A stretch of DNA of 26,385 nucleotides from IMG/VR virus record IMGVR_UViG_2909309443_000009; one strand, given 5' to 3'. The notes beneath the pieces are model-generated. The model had not been told where the DNA came from. It made no database searches and saw only the letters and a list, made by a program, of their open reading frames with translations. Source of the stretch: a virus (lineage: Duplodnaviria; Heunggongvirae; Uroviricota; Caudoviricetes). Shown here piece by piece: positions 1-26,385 of this stretch (positions within the stretch are counted from its first letter, which is position 1; each line of letters starts with the position of its first letter). A program made the position numbers and the translations under genes.

Positions 1-753
1 TCAGATTCCCTGGTGAGTAAGAATTTTACTTTCTGAACTCCTCTGAGAGTATTGACTTGGAGAAACACCAAAATAACGTCTAAATACATAAGTAAAGTAT
101 GAGACACTGGCATAACCACAGACCTTAGCTACTTTACTAATAGGATAACAACGAGTGCTGAGTAAATATTCAGCCATTTGCATCCTCTCATCAAGTATGA
201 TCTTACTGAATGATACCCCCTCTTCTTTCAATTTCCTCTTTAGTAAACTTTCGCTGAGATATAATCTTGATGATATATCCTTAAGACGCCATGGTGCAGA
301 TAAATCCGTATGAATAATCGTTTTAACTTTAGCCCCTGTGCTTTTCAAACATCCAAACAGAAATACTCCAAATTGTTTTTCAGAAGAAAATGCAGAGAGA
401 CATGTAAAAGCAATAGACTCATCAAAAATTTCTATGTATTCAGCACAGTGATTAGCCCAACTAATTAATCCTTTAATTAAACTGAAGTCAGCAAAGTTTA
501 TTTTTAAATAAGATGGATATTCCCTACAATCAGAAATATCCCTTAAGTTATTAGCTTTCAAATAGCGACTAATAAACTCAGCGCCAAAATCCGCCACTAT
601 CACTCTTTCAGGATATGTCAGGAAAAAATCTCTAGAGCTAGAGTCGACAAGTACAGATGAACCTCTCTCCAGAAACACAATCTCTTTTCCTAAATAAACA
701 TCAAAGGACTCCAAAATCAATATAACTGAACATGTAGTTGCCATATCATCCAC
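1..753 (-). CDS. AraC/XylS-family transcriptional regulator (AT-rich, island-type)
   Basis: 250-aa ORF; C-terminal AraC-type HTH signature (KVAKVCGYASVSYFTYVFRRYFGVSPSQY); stop codon at window positions 1-3; markedly AT-rich codon usage. Confidence 0.7.
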   Translation of the reverse strand: MDDMATTCSVILILESFDVYLGKEIVFLERGSSVLVDSSSRDFFLTYPERVIVADFGAEFISRYLKANNLRDISDCREYPSYLKINFADFSLIKGLISWANHCAEYIEIFDESIAFTCLSAFSSEKQFGVFLFGCLKSTGAKVKTIIHTDLSAPWRLKDISSRLYLSESLLKRKLKEEGVSFSKIILDERMQMAEYLLSTRCYPISKVAKVCGYASVSYFTYVFRRYFGVSPSQYSQRSSESKILTHQGI

Positions 754-1475: not shown

Positions 1476-2345
<870 letters not shown>

Positions 2346-2438
2346 GTCTTTAAGTGATAAGCATAAACCGCAGCACGATCTTGCATACGACGTGCTACGG
2401 TTTCATTTATCTCCGACTGGAAACTTCTTATACAAAGA

Positions 2439-2957
2439 CTATACGCCAACATCATAAATGATCGCCACCTTCTGGCGAGGAACTCCTGATGCAATTAATC
2501 GTCCGGCTTGTGCCCATTGTTCTGGTGTAAGTTTGGGACGACGTCCACCAATTCGTCCCTGTGCGCGAGCAGCTTCCAGTCCAGCTTTTGTTCGTTCAAC
2601 AATCAGTTCTCGTTCCATTTCAGCCAGGGCACCCATCACATGAAAGAAAAAACGCCCCATCGGCGTGCTGGTATCAATAGCATCCGTCAGGCTGCGAAAA
2701 TTAACGCCACGTTCGCGCAACTCCTCAACCAGAATGACCAGATGCCGCATACTACGCCCCAGCCGATCCAGCTTCCAGACAACCAGAGTGTCACCTGCCG
2801 ATAATGTCCTGAGCAGTTTTTTCAGTCCCAGCCTTTCGGACTTTGTACCGCTTATCTTGTCTTCAAAAATCAGCTCGCATCCTGCACAGTTCAGCGCATT
2901 ACGTTGTAGATCTGTGTTCTGGTCATTTGTTGACACACGTACATAGCCAATAAGCAT
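2439..2957 (-). CDS. pin: Pin/Gin/Hin-family serine DNA invertase, inverted second copy, C-terminally truncated (ends ...IIYDVGV)
   Basis: MLIGYVRVSTNDQ... resolvase/invertase catalytic domain; near-identical to 4835-5389 but lacks the last ~12 residues of the HTH; lies in a ~600-bp inverted repeat. Confidence 0.7.
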   Translation of the reverse strand: MLIGYVRVSTNDQNTDLQRNALNCAGCELIFEDKISGTKSERLGLKKLLRTLSAGDTLVVWKLDRLGRSMRHLVILVEELRERGVNFRSLTDAIDTSTPMGRFFFHVMGALAEMERELIVERTKAGLEAARAQGRIGGRRPKLTPEQWAQAGRLIASGVPRQKVAIIYDVGV

Positions 2958-2983
2958 GGTAGATCTCCCTGACAAAAGCAGGA

Positions 2984-3271
2984 ATGATGCCATTTGCTCG
3001 TTATTTCTGCATTTTCATAAATGTTGGTTTGGGAGAAGGTGCTCCAGCTATTGGCGTTCCGTTCTTCTGGCCGTCCGCTGCAATGCCAAATACTGTAATC
3101 GACAGCTGGTCCAGTATGGTGTTTTTGAAGTTCAACGGCGCGAAATTCTCTGCCACTGATTATCCTGTGCTGGCGAAAGTGTTTCCTTCGCTGGTATTAC
3201 CTGAAGCCCGCGGTGATTTCATTCGTATCTGGATGACGGGCGAGGTGCAGACGGTGGTCGCGAATTATTAA
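2984..3271 (+). CDS. Orphan tail-fibre C-terminal variable cassette (Sv-like) reading through the left crossover site
   Basis: ORF begins MMPFARYFCIFINVGLGEG across the crossover site, then a unique C-terminal cassette; no upstream constant tail-fibre region exists. Confidence 0.45.
   Translation: MMPFARYFCIFINVGLGEGAPAIGVPFFWPSAAMPNTVIDSWSSMVFLKFNGAKFSATDYPVLAKVFPSLVLPEARGDFIRIWMTGEVQTVVANY
3012..3037. repeat. pix/gix/hix-like 26-bp invertase crossover site (left)
   Basis: TTTTCATAAATGTTGGTTTGGGAGAA, reverse complement resembles hix/gix consensus TTnTCnAAACC..GGTTT..GAnAA; inverted partner at 4755-4780. Confidence 0.6.
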
Positions 3272-4487: not shown

Positions 4488-4808
4488 CTATAATGTCCAC
4501 ATTAAATCCCCGGGACCTGCCTGCCAGATGCTGGCCCCTGTTAATGATTTTGTTTGATGAACAACCGCCACATTTGCTGGCGATTGTGTTTCAGTTGTTA
4601 CAGTACCGATATCATTCCAGTTAATTGAGATGGAATAGTTCGTTGTTGTAAACGACCGGGGGAAAGTTATGTGTCTTACATTGGTGCCGACAGGAAATCC
4701 AAGATAAACACGCTGAATTATCATTCCTCCAGGTAACATAACCCAGTTAGCACCTTCTCCAAAACCAAGGTTTATGAAAATGCAGAAATAACGAGCAAAT
4801 GGCATCAT
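4488..4808 (-). CDS. Orphan alternative tail-fibre C-terminal cassette (Sv'-like) reading through the right crossover site
   Basis: Begins with the same MMPFARYFCIFIN junction peptide as 2984-3271, then a different C-terminal cassette. Confidence 0.45.
   Translation of the reverse strand: MMPFARYFCIFINLGFGEGANWVMLPGGMIIQRVYLGFPVGTNVRHITFPRSFTTTNYSISINWNDIGTVTTETQSPANVAVVHQTKSLTGASIWQAGPGDLMWTL
4755..4780. repeat. pix/gix/hix-like 26-bp invertase crossover site (right)
   Basis: TTCTCCAAAACCAAGGTTTATGAAAA; compare hixL TTCTTGAAAACCAAGGTTTTTGATAA; ~55 bp upstream of pin. Confidence 0.65.
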
Positions 4809-4834
4809 TCCTGCTTTTACCTGGGGGATCTACC

Positions 4835-5389
4835 ATGCTTATTGGCTATGTTCGCGTATCAACAAATGACCAGAACACCGATCTACAACGTAATGCGTTG
4901 AACTGTGTAGGATGTGAACTGATTTTTGAAGACAAGATAAGCGGTACGAAGTCCGAAAGACCGGGACTGAAAAAACTGCTCAGGACATTATCGGCAGGTG
5001 ACACTCTGGTGGTCTGGAAACTGGATCGGCTGGGGCGTAGTATGCGGCATCTGGTCATTCTGGTTGAGGAGTTGCGCGAACGTGGCGTTAATTTTCGCAG
5101 CCTGACGGATGCTATTGATACCAGCACACCGATGGGGCGTTTTTTCTTTCATGTGATGGGTGCCCTGGCTGAAATGGAACGAGAACTGATTGTTGAACGA
5201 ACAAAAGCTGGACTGGAAGCTGCTCGCGCACAGGGACGAATTGGGGGACGTCGTCCCAAACTTACACCAGAACAATGGGCGCAGGCCGGGCGATTAATTG
5301 CATCAGGCGTTCCTCGCCAGAAGGTGGCGATCATCTATGATGTTGGTATATCGACACTGTATAAGAAGTTTCCGGTCGGAGATAAATGA
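4835..5389 (+). CDS. pin: Pin/Gin/Hin-family serine DNA invertase (full length)
   Basis: 184 aa from MLIGYVRVSTNDQNTDLQRNAL...; complete C-terminal HTH (...VAIIYDVGISTLYKKFPVGDK); RBS GGGGGA upstream. Confidence 0.85.
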   Translation: MLIGYVRVSTNDQNTDLQRNALNCVGCELIFEDKISGTKSERPGLKKLLRTLSAGDTLVVWKLDRLGRSMRHLVILVEELRERGVNFRSLTDAIDTSTPMGRFFFHVMGALAEMERELIVERTKAGLEAARAQGRIGGRRPKLTPEQWAQAGRLIASGVPRQKVAIIYDVGISTLYKKFPVGDK

Positions 5390-5860
5390 AACCGTAGCAT
5401 GTCGTATGCAAGATTGTGCGCGGTTGGCTGGTGAACTTTCGATAGTGCGAGTATTGAATGATTTCCAGCCGTTATCGATTTTATGTATTTTTTGCATGAG
5501 AGGATTTCCATCACCTCCCACCGGCCATCTATGACTTTACGCCACTGTCCCTAGGACTACTATGTACTAGGAGCGGATGTTAAACTCAGACTCGTTTCAG
5601 CTACATTGCGTTTTGAATAATATTCCATCATAATAACTCTTTGAAAAATGTAACCTTTTCATTTATAACACTTATGACTTACTTATCTCATTGGGATATC
5701 GGAGGCGAATACTTAACTATGACAAGCCCGATTATTATGACGCTGGCGATATTATATAGATTGATATTAAAATGTAGGATTAGGTTCTTGCCAAGGTGTC
5801 AAGATTTACAGATAGGTTTAAAACCATATAAATATGTTTTACGGTGAGATGTAATAATTA

Positions 5861-5888
5861 TTGGAAAGCATAAACGCTTGGTAAAAAT
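5861..5888 (+). promoter_or_regulatory. Candidate sigma70 promoter for the large NTPase gene
   Basis: TTGGAA - 16 bp - TAAAAA about 25 bp upstream of the RBS GGGAGAAG; by-eye call only. Confidence 0.25.
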
Positions 5889-5911
5889 TTAATTGTTGGG
5901 AGAAGCTAATC

Positions 5912-8900
5912 ATGGAACCCATATCAATTACAGTGGCAACTTATGTAGCAACTAAACTTATTGATCAATTCATTTCTCAAGAAGGATATAGTTGGATTAA
6001 GAAAGCATTATTCCCCACAGAAAAATATGTGGATAGATTATATCAACTAATTGAAGAGACGGCAATTGAGTTTGAAGAAACATATCCAGTAGAAAGTGGA
6101 GCAATTCCATTTTATCATTCTAAACCATTGTTTGAGATGTTGAATGAGTACATCCTTTTTAAAGAGTTCCCTGACAAAGAGATGTTATTAGACAAGTTCA
6201 AAGAATATCCAAGCGTCACTCCCCCAACTCAACAACAACTCAGCCTTTTTTATGGGATGTTATCATTAAAAATCAATAATTGTTCGAAGTTAAAAAAGCT
6301 ACATATCGAAGAAACGTATAAAGAAAAAATATTCGATATTAATGAAGAGCTCATTCAAGTCAAACTTATTTTACGGTCTATAGATGAGAAACTAACTTTT
6401 CACTTAAGTGATGATTGGTTAAATGAAAAAAATAGTCAAGCAATAGCTGACTTGGGAGGTCGATACACACCCGAACTCAACGTAAAGCTAGAAATAGCAG
6501 AGATATTTGATGGCCTCGGTAGAACTAATGATTTTTCTAAAATATTTTATTCGCATATAGATAGCTTTCTGGTCGCTGGAAAGAAATTACATAGTTGCGA
6601 TGTAATTTCCTCAGAATTATTTGAAATAAACCAGTCCTTAAAAGAAATTTCTGATATATATCAGGAGATTAATTTTTCTAAATTAGATGAAATCCCTATA
6701 AATAAATTTAATAACTATGTTTCTAGCTGCCAGACAGCTATTGGCGGAGCGGTATCAATATTGTGGGAACTCCGAGAAAAGTCAGAGCAAGTAGGTGAAA
6801 CCAAGCATTACAGTGATAAGTATTCATCTACTCTGCGAATGCTTCGGGAATTTGACTATGCGTGCAATGAATTACGTATATTCATTAATTCAACAACAGT
6901 GAAGTTGGCTAACAACCCATTCTTACTTCTCGAAGGAAAAGCAGGAATTGGTAAGTCTCATTTACTGGCTGATGTGATTAAAAATCGAATTGCTTCTGGG
7001 TATCCTTCACTACTCATACTAGGGCAACAACTTACTTCAGATGAATCTCCATGGTCACAAATCTTCAAGAGATTACAGCTTAAAATCACTTCTCGTGAAT
7101 TCCTAGAAAAACTGAATTTATATGGCAAAAAAACAGGAAAAAGAGTCTTAGTTTTTATTGATGCTATTAATGAAGGTAATGGAAATAAATTCTGGAATGA
7201 CAATATTAACAGTTTTGTCGATGAAATCAGATGCTTTGAATGGCTTGGTCTGATAATGTCAGTCAGAACAACATATAGAAATGTAACAATTTCACATGAG
7301 AATGTTGTGCGAAATAATTTTGAAATTCATGAACATATTGGATTCCAGAACGTTGAGTTGGAAGCGGTTAGTCTATTTTATGATTATTACAATATTGAGA
7401 GGCCTTCATCTCCTAACCTTAATCCAGAGTTTAAAAATCCTCTATTTCTTAAGTTATTGTGTGAAGGCATTAAGAAAAATGGTTTAACCAAAGTGCCTGT
7501 TGGATTTAATGGGATTTCAAATATTTTTAACTTTTTAGTTGAAGGGGTAAATAAATCATTAGCATCGCCAAAAAAATATGCATTCGATCCCAGTTTTCCT
7601 CTTGTTAAAGATGCTCTCAATGAAATCATAAAATTCAAATTAGAGATTGGTCGTAATAGTATTTCACTTAAAGATGCTCACTCAGTGGTTCAATCTGTAG
7701 TTAATGATTATGTTGCTGATAAAACCTTCCTCAGCGCCTTGATTGACGAAGGATTATTGACTAAAGGCATAGTGAGAAATGATGATAATTCTACTGAGGA
7801 AGTAGTTTATGTGGCTTTTGAAAGGTTTGATGATCATTTAACTGTTAATTTTTTATTAAATGATGTTGAAAATATCGAAAGTGAATTTAAGCCTGATGGT
7901 CGTCTGAAAAAATATTTTCATGATGAATGTGATTTTTATATAAAATCGGGAATAGTAGAGGCGTTGTCTATTCAATTGCCAGAAAGGTATGAAAAAGAGC
8001 TTTATGAATTTCTGCCGGAGTTCAGCAATAATCTTAAATTACTAGAAGCCTTTATTGATAGCTTGATATGGCGCGATATTAAGGCTATTTATTTCGAAAA
8101 AATTAGACCTTTCATCAATGAACATGTTTTTAAATTTAAAGATAGTTTTGATCATTTCCTCGAGGCAGTGATCTCTATTTCAGGTTTAGTTGGCCATCCC
8201 TTTAATGCTAATTTCTTGCATGATTGGCTAAAAGATTATTCTTTGGCAAATCGAGATTCGTTTTGGACTACAGAACTTAAATATAAATATAGTGAAGACT
8301 CAGCATTTAGGCATCTAATCGATTGGGCATGGGCCAGAACAGATAAAAGCTTTGTTTCGGATGAGTCAATCGAGCTAGTTGCAACTAGTTTATGCTGGTT
8401 TTTAACTTCTAGTAACCGAGAACTTCGAGATTGCTCAACTAAGGCTTTAGTGAGTTTACTCGAGCCAAGAATTCCTGTATTGAGAAAAATAATTGATAAG
8501 TTTTATGGTGTAAATGATCCTTACGTTTGGGAAAGAATATTTGCAGTTGCATTAGGCTGTACATTGCGAACTGATAATATTAAAGAACTAAAATATTTAG
8601 CCGAAACTGTTTACCAAAAGGTATTTTGTTCTAAGTATGTGTATCCAAATATATTACTTAGAGATTATGCTAGAGAGATTATTGAATTTGCTAATCATCT
8701 TGGATTGGAACTTGAAAGCATTGAATTATCCAAGACTAGACCACCCTACAACAGCATTTGGCCTGACAAGATTCCTTCAAAAGAGGAACTAGAGTCCCTT
8801 TATGATAAAGAACCTTATCGGGAACTCTGGAGCTCTATTATGGAAGATGGTGACTTTTCACGATATACTATTGGAACAAATTATAATCATTCTGATTGGT

Positions 8901-10366
8901 CTGGTTGCAAGTTTAATGAAACCCCTGTTGACCGTAAGCAAGTTTTTAAAACTTTCAAATGTAAACTAACTGATCAACAAAAAGACTTGTATGATGCCAC
9001 AGATCCTTTCATTTATGATGATAAATGCGAAGGAATTAAATTTGGTCGTGTGGTCGGTAGAAAAGCACAGGAAGAAATAAAGGCGAGCAAGAAATTATTT
9101 AAGAATTCATTGTCATACGATCTGTTAAGTGAGTTTGAAAATGAAATAGAGCCATACCTGGATCATAATAATAATCTGCTGGAAACTGATAAACACTTTG
9201 ATCTTCGACTAGCTCAACAATTTATATTCAATCGTGTTATAGAGCTTGGTTGGGATCCGGAGAAGCATGGTAATTTTGACCAACAAATAGGAACTGGACG
9301 TGGACGTAGAGAGGCATTCCAAGAACGGATTGGTAAAAAATACCAATGGATTGCTTATTATGAATACATGGCAAGGCTAGCCGATAATTTTACTCGTTTT
9401 GAAGGTTATGGTGACGAACGAAAGGAAAATCCATACCAAGGGCCATGGGAGCCTTACGTAAGAGATATAGATCCCACTATCTTACTTAAAGAAACTGGAA
9501 CGAAAAAAATAAGCAATAAAGAAATGTGGTGGCTTAATGATGAAGTGTTTGATTGGACTTGCTCTAATGAAGACTGGGTTAAAAGTTCTACTACTATAAC
9601 TAATTCATATGCTTTTATTGAAGTTAAAGATGATAATGGTGATGAATGGATAGTATTAGAAAGTCATCCATCATGGAAAGAACCAAAAATTATTGGAAAC
9701 GATGATTGGGGGCACCCACGAAAAGAGGTTTGGTATCAGATCAGAAGTTATATCGTTAAAGTTGAAGAATTTGAAAATTTTAGATGTTGGGCAATAGCTC
9801 AAGACTTTATGGGCAGGTGGATGCCGGAATGTACTGATAGATACCAATTATTTAATAGGGAGTACTATTGGTCCGAAGCATTTAAGTCTTTTAAATCAGA
9901 TTATTATGGTGGATCTGACTGGACTTCGGTAACAGACCGGGAGTCTGGAGCTAAGATAGCTGATGTTAGTGTCACTTCGATTAATTATTTGTGGGAAGAG
10001 GAGTTCGACAAATCAAAAATAGAAACTTTGAATTTTTTGAAGCCTAGTAACTTAATCTTTGAAAAGATGGGATTAAAAAGTGGGGAAGTAGAGGGTAGCT
10101 TCAATGATGAAAATGGAACTATGGTTTGCTTTGCAGCTGAAGCTGTATATGCTTCAAAGCCGCATCTACTTGTTAAAAAAGAACCATTTTTAACAATGTT
10201 AAGGGACAATGGTTTTGAAATCGTTTGGACATTATTAGGTGAAAAGGGCGTTATAGGGGGCTCACTCATATCAAGTCATCATTATGGTCGACAGGAGTTT
10301 AGTGGAGCATTTTATTATGAAGACAGTCAGCTAACAGGAAGTCATAAAACTAGCTTTACGAGATAA
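5912..10366 (+). CDS. Large (1484 aa) STAND/NACHT-like P-loop NTPase with uncharacterised N- and C-terminal modules; candidate antiphage defence protein
   Basis: Uninterrupted ORF with strong RBS; Walker A GKAGIGKS (nt 6935-6958), Walker B VLVFIDAINE (~7145-7177), sensor-1-like LIMSVRT; AT-rich; sits between pin and an att core. Confidence 0.8.
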   Translation: MEPISITVATYVATKLIDQFISQEGYSWIKKALFPTEKYVDRLYQLIEETAIEFEETYPVESGAIPFYHSKPLFEMLNEYILFKEFPDKEMLLDKFKEYPSVTPPTQQQLSLFYGMLSLKINNCSKLKKLHIEETYKEKIFDINEELIQVKLILRSIDEKLTFHLSDDWLNEKNSQAIADLGGRYTPELNVKLEIAEIFDGLGRTNDFSKIFYSHIDSFLVAGKKLHSCDVISSELFEINQSLKEISDIYQEINFSKLDEIPINKFNNYVSSCQTAIGGAVSILWELREKSEQVGETKHYSDKYSSTLRMLREFDYACNELRIFINSTTVKLANNPFLLLEGKAGIGKSHLLADVIKNRIASGYPSLLILGQQLTSDESPWSQIFKRLQLKITSREFLEKLNLYGKKTGKRVLVFIDAINEGNGNKFWNDNINSFVDEIRCFEWLGLIMSVRTTYRNVTISHENVVRNNFEIHEHIGFQNVELEAVSLFYDYYNIERPSSPNLNPEFKNPLFLKLLCEGIKKNGLTKVPVGFNGISNIFNFLVEGVNKSLASPKKYAFDPSFPLVKDALNEIIKFKLEIGRNSISLKDAHSVVQSVVNDYVADKTFLSALIDEGLLTKGIVRNDDNSTEEVVYVAFERFDDHLTVNFLLNDVENIESEFKPDGRLKKYFHDECDFYIKSGIVEALSIQLPERYEKELYEFLPEFSNNLKLLEAFIDSLIWRDIKAIYFEKIRPFINEHVFKFKDSFDHFLEAVISISGLVGHPFNANFLHDWLKDYSLANRDSFWTTELKYKYSEDSAFRHLIDWAWARTDKSFVSDESIELVATSLCWFLTSSNRELRDCSTKALVSLLEPRIPVLRKIIDKFYGVNDPYVWERIFAVALGCTLRTDNIKELKYLAETVYQKVFCSKYVYPNILLRDYAREIIEFANHLGLELESIELSKTRPPYNSIWPDKIPSKEELESLYDKEPYRELWSSIMEDGDFSRYTIGTNYNHSDWSGCKFNETPVDRKQVFKTFKCKLTDQQKDLYDATDPFIYDDKCEGIKFGRVVGRKAQEEIKASKKLFKNSLSYDLLSEFENEIEPYLDHNNNLLETDKHFDLRLAQQFIFNRVIELGWDPEKHGNFDQQIGTGRGRREAFQERIGKKYQWIAYYEYMARLADNFTRFEGYGDERKENPYQGPWEPYVRDIDPTILLKETGTKKISNKEMWWLNDEVFDWTCSNEDWVKSSTTITNSYAFIEVKDDNGDEWIVLESHPSWKEPKIIGNDDWGHPRKEVWYQIRSYIVKVEEFENFRCWAIAQDFMGRWMPECTDRYQLFNREYYWSEAFKSFKSDYYGGSDWTSVTDRESGAKIADVSVTSINYLWEEEFDKSKIETLNFLKPSNLIFEKMGLKSGEVEGSFNDENGTMVCFAAEAVYASKPHLLVKKEPFLTMLRDNGFEIVWTLLGEKGVIGGSLISSHHYGRQEFSGAFYYEDSQLTGSHKTSFTR

Positions 10367-10749
10367 AAATGAATCTCAGAGCTGAATATATAAGTAGTAT
10401 TAGAAACCGGGTTATACTTAAGAAATCAATCTTAAGTGTGGCAGTCGAATGGTAGCTAATATGCTAGCGGCGCTAATGCCTGTTTGTTGCTCATAACAGG
10501 CATTCACTTTAGTTATGGCAGAAAAGTATACATGCTGGGTTGGGAAAGTGTGAAAGAAAGGAAGATTGCTGCGCCGTTTGTCGTCACGTTTATCTTCATT
10601 GGCTATGCAAGTCGTAATAAAAGGTGGGACAAAACTGAGACACATAAAGCCTCGCAATGGCTTGCAAGGCTTTACATGTTTTGATGTGGTGGGACGTGTG
10701 AGCGCAGTGTTGATGGGGTAATGCTTTGAATTAGAAGCGGATTCTTATA

Positions 10750-10795
10750 ATTCGTAATGCGAAGGTCGTAGGTTCGACTCCTATTATCGGCACCA
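10750..10795 (+). other. 3' 46-nt fragment of tRNA-Thr (thrW-like, anticodon CGU): att core, not an intact tRNA
   Basis: ATTCGTAATGCGAAGGTCGTAGGTTCGACTCCTATTATCGGCACCA; upstream sequence is not tRNA-like. Confidence 0.75.
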
Positions 10796-10809
10796 TTTAA
10801 ATCAATAAG

Positions 10810-11587
10810 TTACCTCACATTTAAGTAAACTACGTTCTCCTCTTGTGCCGTATTTGTGCCATTGCGACTTATAATCGCATCGATTTTGCTCGCGTGCTCG
10901 GTGAGATGCCCGGCTGAAAGGTGGGCGTATCTTTGAACCATTTCGAGAGTTTCCCATCCTCCCATCTCTTTAAGTGCAAGAAGAGAGACACCGGACTGAA
11001 CCAGCCAGCTTGCCCAGGTATGCCTCAGATCATGGAAGCGGAAGTTGCTAATGCCTGCCCGCTTTAACGCTCCCTTCCATGCCTTGTTGCTGTCGGTTCT
11101 CATTTTCCTTACCGCTGCTGTTTTTGTTCCGTCGCTTCGGTAGGCAGGTTTGGTGTGGACAAATACCCATCTCTTATGGAGCCCCTGCTGTTTTCTTAAT
11201 ATCTGGCATGCGGTTTCGTTAAGAGGAACTCCAATCGCATTGCCAGCTTTTGTTTCATCAGGGTGCATCCATGCCATTTTCTTATCCAGATCGACCTGTG
11301 ACCACTCAAGGTCTGTAACGTTGGAACGGCGAAGGCCTGTCGTGATTGCAAACATGACCACAGGGAAGAAGTGAGGAGCAATTTCTGCAAACAGGCGCTT
11401 CGATTCCTCCTCTGTAAGCCATCTGATTCGTCCATTCTTAACGCGTGGTGTTGATATTTTGGGCGCCCTGTCAAGCCATCCCCATTCAACAGCCATATTG
11501 AGAATAGCGCGAAGTATTGCCAGATGCCGCGTCTTCGTTCCTTTGCTTGCCAGCTTTGGTTTATACTCCGGCACTGGCTTGCCAAGC
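10810..11587 (-). pseudogene. int: Tyrosine integrase, C-terminal ~255 codons, separated from its upstream part by IS66 insertion
   Basis: Catalytic motifs [13 protein letters not shown] and RYAHL present; aligns to residues ~130-387 of the intact integrase at 22883-24046; reading frame continues through the target duplication into the IS. Confidence 0.75.
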
Positions 11588-11617
11588 GTAAGCGACTCGT
11601 CAGAACCGTATTGATAT

Positions 11618-13189
11618 TTACTGAGAGCTCAGATCAACTTTCCAGGGCAACAGATCGCGTACCCGGTTTGCCGGCCAGTCCTGGATATGTTCAATGACGT
11701 AACGCAGCCACTTTTCTGACTCCACATTGTTCAGACGGCATGTGCCGATCAGCGAGTACAACACCGCCGCATGTTCACCACCGCTGTCGGAACCCGCGAA
11801 CATCCAGTTTTTCCGGCCTACGGCCACTCCCCGTAAGGCGTTCTCTGCGATGTTGTTGTCGATTTCCACCCAGCCATTACTGCAGTACACGTTCAGTGCA
11901 TCCCACTGTTTCAGCAGGTATGCGAACGCTTTTGCCGTATCTGAGTGACGCGACAGTGTTTTCATCTGTTGCTGTATCCAGTCATACAGTGACTGCATCA
12001 GTGGCGCGGCTCTGGCTTTTCTTGCCGCCAGACGCTGTTCTGCTGAACAGCCCCGGACCTCTGCCTCGATGGCATACAGTTCACCGATACGCTGCAGGGC
12101 TTCCGTGGTGATGTAGGTGGGCGCTCTTGCATGCACATCGTGGATTTTTCTCCGGACATGAGCCATACACGCGGCTTCCGTTATTCTGCCGGATTCGTAT
12201 AACGCCCGGTAACCACCGTAAGCATCGGCCTGAAGCACACCGCTGTAACCGGCCAGGTGATTTTGTGGATGGATACCTTTCCGGTCCGGACTGTACGCGA
12301 ACCAGACCGCCGGGGGCATCTGTGAACCGGCGTTACGGTCATCACGGACGTAGACCCACAGCCGGGCTGTCCGGGTTTTACCGCTGCCCGGCTCCTGGAC
12401 CGGGACGGGGATATCATCAGCATGGACTTTACCGGGCATCAGCACATACTGGCGCAGGACGTCATACAGCGGCTCCAGCAGTTCAGCAACAGCACCTGTC
12501 CAGCGCCCCAGTGTGGCACGGCTCAGCTCCACGCCCTGACGACGGTATATTTCTGACTGGCGGTATAACGGCAGATGGTCTGCATATTTCCCGGTGACAA
12601 CATGGGCCAGAAGCCCCGCTCCGGCATAACTGCGTGCAATGGGTTTTGAAGGTACTGGTGCCTGCACGATATGGTCGCACCGGCAACAGGCCTGTTTCGG
12701 ACGTTGTGTTTCGATAACCTTAAAGGCGCTGCTGATAAGCTCCAGTTGCTCTGACACATCACATCCCAGAGAACTGAGTTCACCACCACAGGCAGGACAG
12801 CATTCCTCTTCCGGCCGGATAACCCGGGTTTCACGGGGAAGTGAGGCCGGTAACGGTTTACGGGCTGAAGACTGGCGCAGGGGGGATGGCAGTACCGGGT
12901 CATATTGCTCACCCAGCGTTTCTGCCATTTCTTCCTGAAGTGCGCTGATTCGCTCCTGTGCTTCCTGTATCTGCCGTTCGGTTTTTGCGCGAAGTTTTTC
13001 TGAGCTTTTACCGAACTGCATACGTTGCAGTTTCGCAACCAGCGCCTTCAGCCGGTTGATTTCGGAAGCATAAGCCGCCACCCGCTGTGAGAGCAGGCGG
13101 TTGTATTCAGCCATCTGGCGTATGGTGTCCTGTTGCGTCTGCAACAGTGCCCGCAGGCGGGCGTTCTCATGAGCAAGTGAGGTGTCCAT
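11618..13189 (-). CDS. tnpC: IS66-family transposase TnpC
   Basis: 523-aa ORF with N-terminal coiled-coil/leucine-zipper-like region and Cys-rich segment typical of IS66 TnpC. Confidence 0.8.
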
Positions 13190-13208
13190 ATCCTCACTTT
13201 ACAACGGG

Positions 13209-13556
13209 TTATATGCGGATTCCAGCGCGTTCCGTTCGTTTCGGGTGCTTCCAGTTGATACCTTCAAGAAGCATGGATAACTGAGCCGGAGTAAGGTGCA
13301 CCTTGCCGTCACGGGTGACTGGCCAGACGAAGCGGCCCCGCTCCAGGCGTTTGGTGAAGAGGCACAGTCCGTCACTGTCAGCCCACAACACTTTTATCTG
13401 GTCACCCCGGCGTCCGCGGAAGATGAACAGGTGTCCGGAGAACGGGTCATCCTTCAGGACGTTCTGAACTTTTGATGCCAGGCCGTTAAAGCCATTTCGC
13501 ATATCGGTGATACCTGCAACCAGCCAGATACGCGAACCTGCAGGGAGAGATATCAT
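13209..13556 (-). CDS. tnpB: IS66-family accessory protein TnpB (Orf2)
   Basis: 115-aa ORF MISLPAGSRIWLVAGITDMRNGFNGL... immediately upstream of tnpC. Confidence 0.75.
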   Translation of the reverse strand: MISLPAGSRIWLVAGITDMRNGFNGLASKVQNVLKDDPFSGHLFIFRGRRGDQIKVLWADSDGLCLFTKRLERGRFVWPVTRDGKVHLTPAQLSMLLEGINWKHPKRTERAGIRI

Positions 13557-13680
13557 CAGTGGCTGCTCCCTTTTATTTCGCGGATAAGTGTCTGTAATAA
13601 CGCCGGCGTCAGTTTACCTTTAAGCCTGAGAGTTCCGGCCGGCAGAACCAGCTCACAACACAGACTGTCGGACGGTGTAT

Positions 13681-14232
13681 TTATCTGCTCTGGTTCCTGT
13701 GCGGGGCCGGGATTTTATTATCCGGCTCCGGCGTTAACGTCACGGGAAGCAGTGCCGGCATATTTTTTCCGGAAGGCAGCAGGCCACCTTTCCGGTATTG
13801 ATGGCGCCAGTTGAAGAGCAGGTTATCGTTGATTCCGTTTTCCCGGGCGATCTGCGCCACACAGGCTCCGGGCTGCAGTGACTGCTCCACTAAGGCGATT
13901 TTAAACTCATAAGGGAAGTTGGGCCGCCGGGGACGTTTTTTTACCACGGGGGCTTCGGATATAACGGTGCTTTCAGGACGTACGACTGGTATCGTGGAAA
14001 ATTGTCCGTAAAGGCAGGCATCAAGTTCCTGCTCCGACATGCCTGCGGGCAAAGGCCACGAAAGGCCAGCTCTCCGAAAGCGCACGAACATACTACAAAC
14101 TGTTGATTTTGGTACACCCAGGCGACGCCCGGCCACAACCCGGGGTAAATGTTCTTCAAAGTGAAGACGTAAAGCTTCAGTGATCCAGGTCCGGTGTTTC
14201 ATACGATAGTGTCCATTAAAAATGATGGACAT
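13681..14232 (-). CDS. tnpA: IS66-family accessory protein TnpA (Orf1), HTH-containing; N-terminal extent uncertain
   Basis: C-terminal part RPRRPNFPYEFKIALVEQSLQPGACVAQIARENGINDNLLFNWRHQYR is a transposase-type HTH; 124-bp gap before tnpB is atypical. Confidence 0.55.
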   Translation of the reverse strand: MSIIFNGHYRMKHRTWITEALRLHFEEHLPRVVAGRRLGVPKSTVCSMFVRFRRAGLSWPLPAGMSEQELDACLYGQFSTIPVVRPESTVISEAPVVKKRPRRPNFPYEFKIALVEQSLQPGACVAQIARENGINDNLLFNWRHQYRKGGLLPSGKNMPALLPVTLTPEPDNKIPAPHRNQSR

Positions 14233-14353
14233 TATTTTTGTAGAGCCGGAGGAAACAGACCAGACGGTTTAAATGAGCCGGTTACTGCCAAGCCGCAAAC
14301 ACCTGTCCCGGCTCATTTCCCAGTTCAGGCGATGGCGGCGGTTTTCCATCCCG

Positions 14354-22656: not shown

Positions 22657-23006
22657 TGGAGCCATACAGCCTCACACTCGATGAGGCCTGTCATTTTCTC
22701 AAGATATCCAGACCGACTGCCATTAACTGGATACGCACAGGGCGTCTTCAGGCAACACGCAAAGATCCCACTAAGAATAAATCTCCTTACCTCACAACAC
22801 GACAAGCCTGCATTGCGGCTCTTCAGTCTCCGCTGCATACTGTCCAGGTGAGCGCGGGTGATGGCATAACAGAGGAAAGAAAATGTCACTCTTCCGCAGA
22901 GGTGAAATATGGTACGCCAGTTTCACATTGCCGAACGGTAAAAGATTTAAACAGTCTCTTGGAACAAAGGACAAAAGGCAGGCGACAGAACTCCATGACA
23001 AGCTAA
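22656..23006 (+). CDS. xis: Excisionase (AlpA/Xis-type HTH); 3' extent uncertain
   Basis: [36 protein letters not shown] typical of excisionases; RBS GAGGTG; in-frame ORF runs to 23006, overlapping the int start at 22883. Confidence 0.5.
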
Positions 23007-24046
23007 AGGCTGAAGCATGGCGGGTCAGCAAACTTGGTGAAATACCTGATATAACGTTCGAGGAAGCGTGTGTCAGGTGGCTTGAAGAGAAAGCACATAA
23101 AAAATCACTGGACGATGACAAAAGCCGGATCGGATTCTGGCTTCAACATTTCGCAGGAATGCAACTAAGAGACATTACTGAATCAAAAATTTATTCAGCA
23201 ATGCAGAAAATGACGAACCGGCGTCATGAGGAAAACTGGAAACTCAGGGCAGAAGCATGCAGAAAAAAAGGGAAACCTGTTCCAGAATACACGCCAAAAC
23301 CAGCGTCCGTTGCAACGAAGGCTACGCATCTTTCATTTATAAAGGCCCTACTAAGAGCCGCAGAGCGTGAATGGAAAATGCTGGATAAGGCACCAATTAT
23401 TAAAGTGCCTCAACCAAAGAATAAACGGATCCGCTGGCTGGAGCCCCATGAAGCACAAAGGCTGATTGATGAATGTCCGGAGCCATTAAAGTCTGTTGTT
23501 GAATTTGCACTGGCAACAGGCTTAAGACGCTCGAACATCATCAACCTTGAATGGCAACAAATAGATATGCAGCGCCGGGTGGCATGGATAAACCCGGAAG
23601 AGAGTAAATCAAACCGCGCAATCGGCGTTGCGCTGAATGATACTGCATGTCGCGTTTTGAAAAAACAAATCGGGAATCATCACCGTTGGGTATTTGTGTA
23701 CAAGGAAAGCTGTACCAAACCAGACGGAACGAAAGCGCCAACAGTAAGGAAGATGCGGTATGACGCAAACACAGCCTGGAAAGCAGCGCTGAGACGGGCT
23801 GGTATTGATGATTTCAGATTTCACGACTTGAGACACACCTGGGCAAGTTGGCTGGTTCAAGCCGGAGTCCCGTTGTCAGTGTTACAGGAAATGGGAGGCT
23901 GGGAGTCTATCGAAATGGTTCGTCGATATGCTCACCTTGCACCTAATCACCTTACCGAACACGCACGGCAAATAGACTCGATCCTGAACCCATCGGTCCC
24001 AAATTCGTCCCAGTCAAAAAATAAGGAAGGTACTAATGATGTGTAA
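22883..24046 (+). CDS. int: Lambdoid tyrosine integrase (intact)
   Basis: 387 aa; RBS AGGAAAG; catalytic R...HxxR...Y motifs ([24 protein letters not shown]); ends 14 bp before the att core. Confidence 0.9.
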
Positions 24047-24060
24047 CTTATTGATTTAAA

Positions 24061-24109
24061 TGGTGCCGATAATAGGAGTCGAACCTACGACCTTCGCATT
24101 ACGAATGCG
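24061..24109 (-). other. 3' 49-nt fragment of tRNA-Thr (thrW-like) in inverted orientation: second att core
   Basis: TGGTGCCGATAATAGGAGTCGAACCTACGACCTTCGCATTACGAATGCG; the 14-bp spacer to the integrase stop (CTTATTGATTTAAA) is identical to the spacer at 10796-10809. Confidence 0.75.
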
Positions 24110-24197
24110 TAAATTGATCTTGTAAAATCAATACCTATCGAATTTAAATGGATTTTTTGCCACAATATTGCCACAGTTCGTTAGGAATCAGACAGAA

Positions 24198-25271
24198 ATG
24201 GCGACTATACGCAAACGTGGTAACTACCAATGGGAAGCTCAAATCCGTAAACGTGGTTTTCCCTCTCAAACCAAAACCTTTAACACCAAAGTAGAAGCAG
24301 AAGCTTGGGCCAAAATGATCGAGTCAGAAATGGCGAGAGGAGTTTGGCTTAGCCGCAGCGAAGCGGAATCTACGACATTGTATGAAGCCCTAACGCGATA
24401 TGAAAAAGAGATTGTTCCCGACAAAAAAGGGGCAGTGCAAGACCGATCATTGGTGCGGATACTAAAAGGCACTCAGCTGGCGAAAAACTATATGGCCAGC
24501 ATCAGGAGTGCCGATGTCGCCAAGCTGAGAGATGAATGGTTGAAAATCTATGCTCCTGCAACCGTTTTAAGGCGTTTGGCCTTACTTTCTCATGTATTCA
24601 ATGTTTCGCGGAAAGAATGGGGCATGGAGAGCCTGCTGAACCCCGTAGAGGCCATTCGTAAACCCCAACCCAAGAACTCCAGGACCAGACGCCTAGAAGC
24701 GCTGCCTGTAGTTTCTGAGAAAACCGGTGTTACGTCAGGAAAGCAAATAGCCAACGAGATCGAACATATCATCGCCGCAACACATTCATTAGTATTGCCA
24801 GCAATCATTCTTCTGGCGTTAGAGACAGCCATGCGCCGTAGCGAAATCGCAGAGCTTCGATGGCGCTTTATCGATCTTGATCGGCGAGTTGCACATCTGC
24901 CGGATACTAAGAATGGTAATGCCCGCGATGTCCCTTTATCAACGAAAGCCATTACGATACTGTCCAGTCTCAAGGAACATTCTAAGCCAGCTGCTGATAA
25001 GGTTTTTGATATGCGTGCAGACGCGATTACCCGAGCTTTTGACCGAGCTGTAAAACGAGCCAGAGAACGATACGAGAAAACAAACTCATTATGTGATGAA
25101 TCTTTCCTTAAAGATTTAAGATTTCATGACCTTCGACATGAAGCAACTTCTCGACTTGCTGAAATTTTCCCTATGCATGAACTAACCAAAATTACAGGAC
25201 ATAAAGATCCAAGAATGCTAATGCGGTATTATCATCCAAAAGCTGAAGATTTGGCGTTAAAGTTGAAATAA
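24198..25271 (+). CDS. Tyrosine site-specific recombinase / island integrase (second family)
   Basis: MATIRKRGNYQWEAQIRKRGF N-terminus typical of island integrases; catalytic LRFHDLRHEATSRL and MRYYH; ATG 24198 with RBS AGGA. Confidence 0.8.
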   Translation: MATIRKRGNYQWEAQIRKRGFPSQTKTFNTKVEAEAWAKMIESEMARGVWLSRSEAESTTLYEALTRYEKEIVPDKKGAVQDRSLVRILKGTQLAKNYMASIRSADVAKLRDEWLKIYAPATVLRRLALLSHVFNVSRKEWGMESLLNPVEAIRKPQPKNSRTRRLEALPVVSEKTGVTSGKQIANEIEHIIAATHSLVLPAIILLALETAMRRSEIAELRWRFIDLDRRVAHLPDTKNGNARDVPLSTKAITILSSLKEHSKPAADKVFDMRADAITRAFDRAVKRARERYEKTNSLCDESFLKDLRFHDLRHEATSRLAEIFPMHELTKITGHKDPRMLMRYYHPKAEDLALKLK

Positions 25272-25280
25272 GGACGTTGT

Positions 25281-26171
25281 ATGGATTATAAAAATAAGTT
25301 AGTTGATGCATCACCAAAATTAAACAACCCTCAACTATTGGCTATAATATACTTAATACCTTTTGGATACTTGATTGTAGAAAACCCATTATGGCTAGAA
25401 AATATATACATTGCCGCTCCAATTTTCCTATCATCTATAGCTTTATTAACCAGTGTATACATAGGATATCGTGATTTATTAAATAAAGTATTTAATAATG
25501 CAGTAGTTAAATGGGGCGTAACTGGCTTTACATATTCCGTATGCTTATGGATCGCAAAGTTTAAGCTTGACATAGCTTATGGTATAGTCCCAGAAAACCT
25601 TAATTACTCGACATTAGCTTATGCTTTCATGCTCTCATTTCCAATAGGGGCAATGATTTGTGCAATTACAGTCTATATATACATATTTTTGCGAGATGTA
25701 TCCCCAGCAAAAATAGTAATATCCTCTATGATTTCAGTATATATTGGAAGCTTGGCTCAACATCATATACAGATGAACAATCTTCCTGAAAAAATAATAT
25801 TAATAGGACTTATAATTATGGTCCCCTATAACATGGTCAATTTAGCTAGTTCATTAGTTATTAAAAGGAAATTTAATTTTAATCGTTTAGTATCAGGCTT
25901 ATCCCTTTTTGCTGTGTCAGTTGCTCTTTTTATTATTAGCATGACAGCAATGAAATACATTGAAAGATTTCAAGAAAAGTTTATTTTTCTCGATGCAAGA
26001 ACATCTACGACATGTGGTAGCTCAGAAAGCAAATCTCTTTATATTGAAAAAAATGAAAATCAGTGTTATAAAATATCAGGAAATAAATTCTCGGAGTTAA
26101 GACTAACTCTTGTAGATAAAAACATCTTGAATATAAATAATAAAGGCACTTCAACTTATGAACAAAAATAA
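25281..26171 (+). CDS. AT-rich polytopic membrane protein (about 7 predicted TM helices), unknown function
   Basis: 296 aa with multiple ~20-residue hydrophobic stretches; strongly AT-rich; immediately downstream of the integrase. Confidence 0.5.
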   Translation: MDYKNKLVDASPKLNNPQLLAIIYLIPFGYLIVENPLWLENIYIAAPIFLSSIALLTSVYIGYRDLLNKVFNNAVVKWGVTGFTYSVCLWIAKFKLDIAYGIVPENLNYSTLAYAFMLSFPIGAMICAITVYIYIFLRDVSPAKIVISSMISVYIGSLAQHHIQMNNLPEKIILIGLIIMVPYNMVNLASSLVIKRKFNFNRLVSGLSLFAVSVALFIISMTAMKYIERFQEKFIFLDARTSTTCGSSESKSLYIEKNENQCYKISGNKFSELRLTLVDKNILNINNKGTSTYEQK

Positions 26172-26385
26172 CCCTGCTAATTCATTTTCTATAGAAGCAA
26201 GGAAAGAAGCTTTTCGGAGAGCTGAAGCCAGTCTTTTTTTATCAAGTAAAGATCCCAAAGGCTCCTCATTTTTTAATGAAATAAAAACTAAGGTAATCAA
26301 TGGAGAGCTAACCTATGAAGAGGCAAAGAGAGAAGTATTAAATTATCACATTGAACAATCTAAAAATCAAAATAAAAGAGGCTAA
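26158..26385 (+). CDS. Small helical protein resembling VbhA-type antitoxins of Fic-family toxins (tentative)
   Basis: 75 aa; EARKEAFRRAEASLFLS ... INGELTYEEAKREVL pattern; overlaps the upstream gene end; stop codon is the last triplet of the window. Confidence 0.3.
   Translation: MNKNNPANSFSIEARKEAFRRAEASLFLSSKDPKGSSFFNEIKTKVINGELTYEEAKREVLNYHIEQSKNQNKRG

Follow-up and report, generated by a model that had tools for sequence, protein, structure and literature searches.

The window analysed here is the whole 26,385-nucleotide stretch of DNA held in the IMG/VR virus record IMGVR_UViG_2909309443_000009 (Caudoviricetes). Our subject is the AT-rich interval that lies between the stop codon of the DNA invertase gene pin, at position 5389, and an att core whose match to the tRNA-Thr gene thrW starts exactly at position 10750. 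An earlier note on this DNA, made by a model from the letters and a list of their open reading frames (ORFs), had set the same limits and had described the interval as a large NTPase gene plus short flanks. Indeed, only one long ORF is present (5912–10366, 4455 bp, 1484 aa), and it is the only real gene of the interval. This gene is avs2; it encodes an AVAST type 2 STAND NTPase and represents an allele of EcAvs2.

The NCBIfam equivalog NF041813 matches residues 178–1476 of the protein with 1687 bits against a cut-off of 1000, and the PADLOC Avs2 model PDLC02164 matches residues 22–1483 with 1755 bits. RefSeq calls a 100%-identical gene avs2. The entry PDB 9O4E, which contains EcAvs2 with the PhiV-1 terminase, is matched from end to end (residues 1–1484, 3415 bits), and the window Avs2 is ~99% identical to EcAvs2. 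A Walker A motif (GKAGIGKS) is located at residues 342–349 and a Walker B motif (VLVFIDAINE) at residue 412, whereas the Pfam family nSTAND6 gives only a weak match under its cut-off. The alignment to 9O4E spans the TPR domain and the C-terminal sensor for the terminase ATPase domain, and the terminase-contact residues D981 and R1130, which form the bridging-ATP contacts, are kept in the window protein.

Large terminases of very diverse kinds activate EcAvs2 through their ATPase domain (PMC13601566). Upon binding this domain in the large terminase of an invading phage, the protein forms a flat C4 tetramer with bridging ATP, which gathers the N-terminal effectors and leads to cell death or growth arrest before phage release (PMC13601566). 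The effector of EcAvs2 is uncommon, N-terminal and probably non-enzymatic, and its first 15 residues resemble amyloid signalling motifs; most Avs2 proteins have an Mrr-like nuclease in its place (PMC13601566). Both anti-phage activity and terminase-triggered toxicity have been demonstrated for EcAvs2 (PMC13601566). The suggestion of the earlier note that the NTPase is defence cargo is thus supported, the gene belonging to a family with validated anti-phage activity. Lambda-type terminase sensing by EcAvs2 is not mentioned in the main text of two papers, as far as a term search of that text can tell.

The window protein shares with EcAvs2 (PDB 9O4E; Evans et al., Nat Commun 2026, PMC13601566) the length of 1484 aa, the Walker motifs, D981/R1130 and the non-enzymatic effector. 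It differs by 11 substitutions in the effector and helical extension (residues 27–115) and by one at residue 727. These 12 differences were counted against the allele of strain NCTC9087, which agrees with the PDB entry in all of the 200 N-terminal residues that were compared; residues 200–1484 hold one substitution against this allele. On the nucleotide level, the cassette that contains avs2 differs from its NCTC9087 counterpart at 61 positions. Fifty of these lie in 5392–6392 and a single one in 6392–10642, with the remaining ten located at the core and its outer flank. Because the single-nucleotide polymorphisms (SNPs) cluster in the first kilobase, 11 of the 12 amino-acid changes fall in the N-terminal effector region, and 5392–6392 looks like a recombination tract that imported a variant effector end. 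The avs2 sequence of the window is 100% identical in at least 17 genomes of enterotoxigenic Escherichia coli (ETEC).

The claim that the interval is much more AT-rich than its neighbours was borne out, since the GC content falls from ~0.47–0.49 to 0.34 between the pin stop codon and the thrW core. It amounts to 0.350 for the whole interval named in the earlier note (5390–10749) and to 0.341 for the 4913-bp cassette (5577–10489) as defined by comparison with relatives. Neighbouring values are 0.487 in the pin repeat (4749–5425), 0.464 in the invertible segment, 0.490 in the integrase remnant (10796–11587) and 0.486 in the prophage early region. The sliding-window GC and codon-usage analyses that the note had proposed gave a consistent picture. 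In the sliding profile, 5500–10500 shows values of 0.31–0.37, compared to 0.43–0.50 on the left and 0.48–0.60 on the right, and the 4913-bp segment of lowest GC content in the 26-kb sequence begins at 5551, at most 26 bp from the comparative breakpoint. GC at third codon positions (GC3) is 0.267 in the ORF 5912–10366 and 0.44–0.50 in pin, tfa and the integrases. The match between the GC step and the comparative breakpoints supports the cargo status of 5577–10489, which contributes 335 bp upstream and 123 bp downstream of the ORF. The note had counted all of 5390–10749 as cargo. This holds for 5577–10489 but not for the flanks 5390–5576 and 10490–10749, which are conserved phage DNA (Table 1).

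The att core has the sequence ATTCGTAATGCGAAGGTCGTAGGTTCGACTCCTATTATCGGCACCA and is identical to the 3′ part of thrW; zero matches of this 46-bp core are expected by chance. The conserved right flank in front of it is presumably the attP arm needed by the integrase. ARAGORN called no intact tRNA anywhere in the window, and an Rfam scan of 5300–10900 returned no match. Promoter- and terminator-like sites near avs2 were not commoner than in shuffled sequence, with the exception of one long hairpin in the arm.

Alternating cargo in a slot of prophages at thrW

Relatives were sampled by exact-protein look-up, using either a 100%-identical Pin or the identical 50-aa ORF of the arm, and prevalence was counted among 5426 complete E. 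coli genomes. The Avs2 version was present in 87 of these genomes, the SIR2 version in 14 and the CBASS version in 35. Five loci of the SIR2 version, all with intact Mu-type tail modules and a 100%-identical Pin, are homologous to the window from pin to 5576 and again from 10490 onwards. The gap is filled by a 3023-bp insert with a GC content of 0.306, which encodes a 936-aa SIR2-domain protein on the other strand. In three loci of the CBASS version, homology covers 5389–5581 (85%) and resumes at 10511, and the 4340-bp insert in between encodes a cyclase, a 2TM effector and a nuclease of the Argonaute-associated type (Aga). The identical 50-aa arm ORF was found downstream of different cargo, either Avs2 or CBASS. 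At locus L009, an identical Pin is directly followed by PD-T4-3, a diverged copy of the left flank and two unnamed ORFs.

As homology breaks and resumes at the same points, 5390–5576 and 10490–10749 represent conserved flanks and 5577–10489 an exchangeable cassette. The comparison of the pin-to-att interval in relatives, which had been suggested as a check, thus revealed alternating cargo (Avs2, SIR2, CBASS, PD-T4-3). Likewise, the horizontal acquisition that the earlier note had proposed is upheld, given that an identical Pin or an identical arm ORF adjoins other genes elsewhere. At the cassette ends (5577 and 10489) neither direct or inverted repeats nor a target duplication were found. Among deposited phage genomes none matched the cassette, and only pin gave matches. 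As a separate observation, an 87-bp piece of the left flank (window 5402–5487) occurs at 90% identity in the chromosomal ykgJ–ecpE intergenic region of several strains (L004 32379–32465), where it possibly marks the former end of an old prophage.

The earlier note had placed the slot immediately after the invertase gene. This describes the window correctly, but the invertase is not what defines the slot, because the same Avs2 cassette with the same flanks follows Stf-Tfa of the lambda type, without pin, in NCTC9087, strain 26561, JX21CE35 and the loci L018, L020 and L026. As judged from these sequence comparisons, the slot lies where the tail-fibre operon ends and the attP arm begins, a classical accessory region that corresponds to the b region of lambda. 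JX21CE35 (L028) carries an apparently complete 44-kb lambdoid prophage with the cassette as its last gene, in the order thrW, int, early genes, Q, lysis, terminase, head, tail, J, lom, stf, tfa, avs2, arm, core. This prophage also has an 'ATP-dependent nuclease' gene (L028 34553–36004) between Q and the lysis genes, which may mark a further site for cargo in this phage.

Over 180 bp, the left flank shows 86% identity to lambda 24169–24348, which is located in the b region between ea47 and ea31, and a conserved stem-loop follows the stop codon of pin or tfa. By this homology, the cassette occupies the position of lambda ea31–ea59. PADLOC matches the lambda genes ea59 and ea31 (L029 5510–7974) to PtuA of Septu with 611 bits and to the candidate pair PDC-M01 A/B with 667 and 375 bits. 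Like the slot of the window, the lambda b region has its occupants between the tail-fibre genes and attP; their defence role is a prediction from profile matches. Lambda differs in that its attB lies between gal and bio, that it has its own Int and arm, and that ea47 is positioned between tfa and the flank.

The statement of the earlier note on e14, where pinE is followed by the restriction gene mcrA, was accurate as well: in K-12, pinE is succeeded by mcrA and the icd′ att boundary. The full order is stfE, pinE, mcrA, icdC, with a GC content of 0.349 from pinE to the att boundary, and a deposited full-length e14-like phage has pin and then mcrA at the end of its Mu-type tail module. The window pin and pinE are 91% identical on the DNA level, and homology stops at the stop codon. 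Common to both elements are an invertible tail-fibre segment, Pin, one AT-rich defence gene and att, together with homologous early genes (ymfL and others). In contrast, e14 uses an att at icd instead of thrW and another integrase, lacks the lambda-b-like left flank, and carries a type IV restriction enzyme as cargo.

Defence hotspots in P2 and P4 were, reportedly, described by Rousset et al. in 2022. Hotspots of this type likewise combine a fixed internal position with interchangeable cargo that is set between conserved flanks, whereas the phage backbones of the window are e14-like and lambda-like. In the literature we found no paper that names thrW or this tail-fibre-to-att slot as a defence hotspot. 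For E. coli, mobile elements of one type have been described in which a dedicated position, in prophages as well as satellites, is occupied by varied defence cargo (Hochhauser et al. 2023, PMC10121019).

Based on these data, 5577–10489 is very probably a horizontally exchanged defence cassette in the far-end slot of a temperate phage integrating at thrW, with an allele of EcAvs2 as its sole gene. We propose that such cassettes would be swapped by homologous recombination in the conserved flanks, which comprise 187 bp on the left and, on the right, the attP arm together with the core (~300 bp). The SNP mosaic, one end of which lies inside avs2, and the lack of terminal repeats favour homologous exchange over a dedicated cassette recombinase.

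Alternative explanations and implications

Some observations weigh against the assignment as a defence cassette. Upstream of avs2 no convincing promoter was found. The anti-phage activity of the window allele is a prediction from sequence, since 12 residues, among them 11 N-terminal ones, distinguish it from the allele that was tested. Not every occupant of the slot is a proven defence system either: PADLOC gave no defence match for the two ORFs of L009 beyond PD-T4-3, and for the 936-aa SIR2 protein it returned domain-level matches only, with no system name, leaving it as a candidate defence gene. Finally, the order of rearrangements proposed below rests on parsimony, and either orientation of the 10.7-kb module described there is possibly the ancestral one.

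The breakpoints at 5576–5581 and 10490–10511 are sharp and reused by three unrelated cassettes, which could also reflect a dedicated site-specific movement on the conserved flanks, integron-like or catalysed by Pin or Int; the conserved stem-loop after the pin or tfa stop codon and the invertase and integrase adjoining the slot would suit such a mechanism. Yet the cassette ends are devoid of repeats or a target duplication, the Pin crossover sequence is confined to 3024 and 4753, and the length of the flanks is sufficient for recombination by RecA or phage recombinases. A SNP mosaic with a breakpoint inside avs2 is, in addition, what homologous exchange would be expected to leave, so that we regard site-specific movement as quite unlikely. 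It is even harder to believe that avs2 is not prophage cargo at all but part of a separate small island using int_X′, the remnant of an integrase gene, and the thrW core. Admittedly, the integrase remnant is only 15 bp past the core, and islands with P4-type integrases and DRT3, SIR2 or methyltransferase genes do follow this core elsewhere. However, the side of the core that avs2 occupies is the tRNA-5′ one, corresponding to the far end of the element on the left, and an integrase at 10810 would mobilise DNA on its right. Moreover, NCTC9087, strain 26561 and L019 have cassette, arm and core against the chromosomal yagP flank without int_X, and in JX21CE35 the cassette comes directly after Stf-Tfa of a complete prophage.

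Prophage cargo could also be a decaying or silenced relic without a present defence role, either through its N-terminal substitutions or through AT-rich silencing. The surroundings, a prophage remnant that has been heavily rearranged and contains an inserted IS66, are in line with this, as are the grouping of 11 substitutions in the effector region and the lack of a clear promoter. We nevertheless consider decay or silencing unlikely, because the frame of 1484 codons is intact, with one nucleotide difference from the reference allele over 4.2 kb, and catalytic as well as terminase-contact residues are retained. The conservation without a single change in the ETEC genomes mentioned above (at least 17) argues in the same direction. 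Furthermore, the N-terminal variant block extends into the non-coding flank at similar density and thus looks like an imported allele and not like decay.

With 5577–10489 taken as a defence cassette, its gene is a known one, an EcAvs2 allele named by the NCBI pipeline and with a cryo-electron microscopy structure, and a prophage defence hotspot is a known kind of place. The missing catalogue entry for this slot and for thrW is a cataloguing gap, not a new kind of biology. The slot coordinates, given by the lambda-b-homologous flank and the thrW-type attP arm, can be used to mine further candidate defence genes, of which the 936-aa SIR2 protein and the unnamed ORFs of L009 are already in view. 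The data also reveal where EcAvs2 naturally resides in the genome, namely in a prophage of lambdoid or e14-like type at thrW, a setting for which a term search of the main text of the structural paper gave no description.

For a prophage that carries a sensor of large terminases, its own induction would be potentially suicidal. The late genes are all missing in three of the four avs2-bearing thrW prophages examined (window lineage, NCTC9087 and strain 26561), while JX21CE35 has a complete late region including its own TerL (WP_025670557.1). It is conceivable, though rather doubtful, that carriage of avs2 itself drives or stabilises the loss of the late region from terminase to tail and leaves remnants that persist as defence modules. 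This idea is weakened by the fact that cryptic remnants are common in any case. If it were true, JX21CE35 would need a TerL escape variant or an Avs2 inhibitor. This prophage raises the question of how a sensor for the own terminase is tolerated.

Neighbouring elements and rearrangements at the locus

Table 1 Positions of the features discussed, in window coordinates.
Feature	Position	Strand	Details
AraC-family regulator gene, AT-rich	1–753	-	GC 0.35; Pfam HTH_AraC and HTH_18; outer end of mirror-image arm
PD-T4-3 (GIY-YIG) defence gene	1521–2345	+	PADLOC 464 bits, profile positions 1–255 of 256; mirror-image slot after pin′
pin′, C-terminally truncated second invertase copy	2439–2993	-	678-bp inverted repeat with pin
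Pin-invertible tail-fibre segment	3040–4752	.	Crossover sites 3024–3039 (+) and 4753–4768 (-)
pin, intact serine DNA invertase gene	4835–5389	+	184 aa; Pfam Resolvase 174.8 bits and HTH_7; last conserved phage gene before the slot
Conserved left flank	5390–5576	.	First 187 bp of the interval; GC 0.465; 84–96% identity in relatives with SIR2 or CBASS cargo
Variable AT-rich cassette	5577–10489	+	4913 bp; GC 0.341; exchanged in relatives
avs2, AVAST type 2 STAND NTPase, EcAvs2 allele	5912–10366	+	1484 aa; NF041813, PADLOC, PDB 9O4E
Conserved attP arm	10490–10749	.	Last 260 bp of the interval; GC 0.434; 50-aa ORF 10532–10684; hairpin with 18-bp stem 10640–10679
att core	10750–10795	+	46 bp, 3′ part of thrW (tRNA-Thr CGU)
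int_X′, integrase remnant of a second thrW-integrating element	10796–11587	-	N-terminus missing; Pfam Phage_integrase 121 bits
IS66-family insertion in the integrase remnant	11588–14285	-	8-bp target duplication TGCCAAGC
Second thrW att core	24061–24106	-	Adjoins intact integrase int_Y (22928–24046)

The slot is preceded by two copies of the invertase gene, whose inverted repeats (2366–3043 and 4749–5425) are 94.5% identical. The Pin crossover site TTGGTTTGGGAGAAGG, the sequence of which was taken from PMC12529663, is present only at 3024 and 4753, with one copy exact and the other showing one mismatch. The segment 3040–4752 is inverted in strain L1_E925 (L013), whose sequence apart from this is 99.9% identical to the window, and the diverged pin and pin′ repeats are not swapped between the two. 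That the repeats stayed unexchanged points to site-specific action of Pin, and the opposite orientation in so similar a strain suggests that a Pin-type inversion of the segment is recent or ongoing. The PD-T4-3 gene, for which Pfam gives the LEM-3 GIY-YIG domain (PF22945, 54 bits), occupies the mirror position after pin′. Thus, the window holds a double-ended module composed of the AraC-family gene, PD-T4-3, pin′, the invertible segment, pin and avs2. PADLOC returned no match for the AraC-family gene.

The arrangement of the locus can be followed in the ETEC lineage of strain E8 and its relatives, from which the window derives. Its left part consists of paoABCD, yagP′ and a degenerate minus-strand core with an arm B, the latter two lying outside the window, ~364–600 bp to its left. 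In the middle follow the AraC-family gene, PD-T4-3, pin′ (-), the invertible segment, pin (+), avs2, an arm A and the core (+). The right part comprises int_X′, IS66, rusA′, early genes similar to those of e14 and CPS-53, int_Y and the minus-strand core, and the far right a remnant of an integrative element, the real thrW (-) and proA. The real thrW is encoded on the opposite strand, to the right of the window, and the core at 10750–10795 is inverted relative to it. The earlier note had regarded this att core as the boundary of the element and the DNA on both sides of the interval as phage-derived. The core is present, but it is an internal one inside a rearranged composite, one of two inverted cores around a 10.7-kb module, and not the outer boundary. 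The DNA to its right belongs to another element, made up of the integrase remnant and IS66, and not to the chromosome.

Integrases of the int_X type adjoin an intact thrW, e.g., in E. coli 536, and follow prophage arm and core in tandem arrays; direct tandem junctions of arm, core and int_X occur in other strains. The sequence common to int_X and int_Y is limited to the core plus 18 bp, and for the rest the two are ~65–70% identical. The 10.7-kb module between the two inverted thrW cores is flipped in FDAARGOS_1077 (L007) compared to the window lineage, which includes L013. Between L007 and L013 the arms A and B keep their cargo and swap their partner flanks, int_X′ versus yagP. The exchange point could be narrowed down to at most 85 bp, a stretch that includes the core and is bounded by the last polymorphism of the arm and, close to the 3′ end of the core, by an indel of 1 bp, and the module junction of the window type is found in 17 complete genomes. 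Recombination of the two inverted att cores with each other, catalysed by RecA or by int_Y, which is intact, would account for the flip. In addition, IS66 is missing in FDAARGOS_1077, where 11587 is joined directly to 14286.

From these arrangements we infer a sequence of events that would start with two prophages arranged in tandem at thrW. Their Pin-invertible segments would have recombined in an inversion that fused the prophages head to head, giving pin′, segment and pin flanked by one cargo slot at either end. All late genes would then have been lost in a deletion reaching from rusA to int_X, an att-by-att inversion would have flipped the 10.7-kb module, and IS66 would have inserted last with its 8-bp duplication. 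A role of IS66 as the cause of the deletion and the inversion was considered and rejected, as it is a simple insertion and is missing in L007, which has the same int_X′-to-rusA′ junction. The 68 bp after the NCTC9087 core were likewise rejected as a deleted int_X. They recur in K-12 behind the pseudo-tRNA core by yagP and are thus ancestral chromosomal flank, only distantly related to the C-terminus of int_X′. In L011 the invertible segment appeared to be transposed into avs2 by two Pin inversions; this was dismissed as a scaffolding artefact, the junctions being runs of N.

At the second core, RefSeq annotates a 112-nt 'tRNA-Ser' (24061–24172), which consists of the thrW 3′ core and unrelated DNA. 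ARAGORN calls no tRNA there, and the annotation looks like a mis-call. A further integrative element (24198–26385; L002 14699–28255) is situated between the prophage remnant and the real thrW, so that at least three elements are stacked at thrW in this strain. This further element encodes an integrase, a PD-(D/E)XK nuclease and an antitoxin of the VbhA family, and it also contains conjugation genes (Trb and TraJ) and an AT-rich ORF of 296 aa. In other genomes, islands with integrases of the P4 type make use of the duplicated core that follows the slot (L014 13416–14612; L012 15306 onwards; L021 9878–13833), and these islands carry DRT type 3 (Drt3a, 513 bits), a SIR2 gene, or a methyltransferase together with an ORC/Cdc6-like gene.

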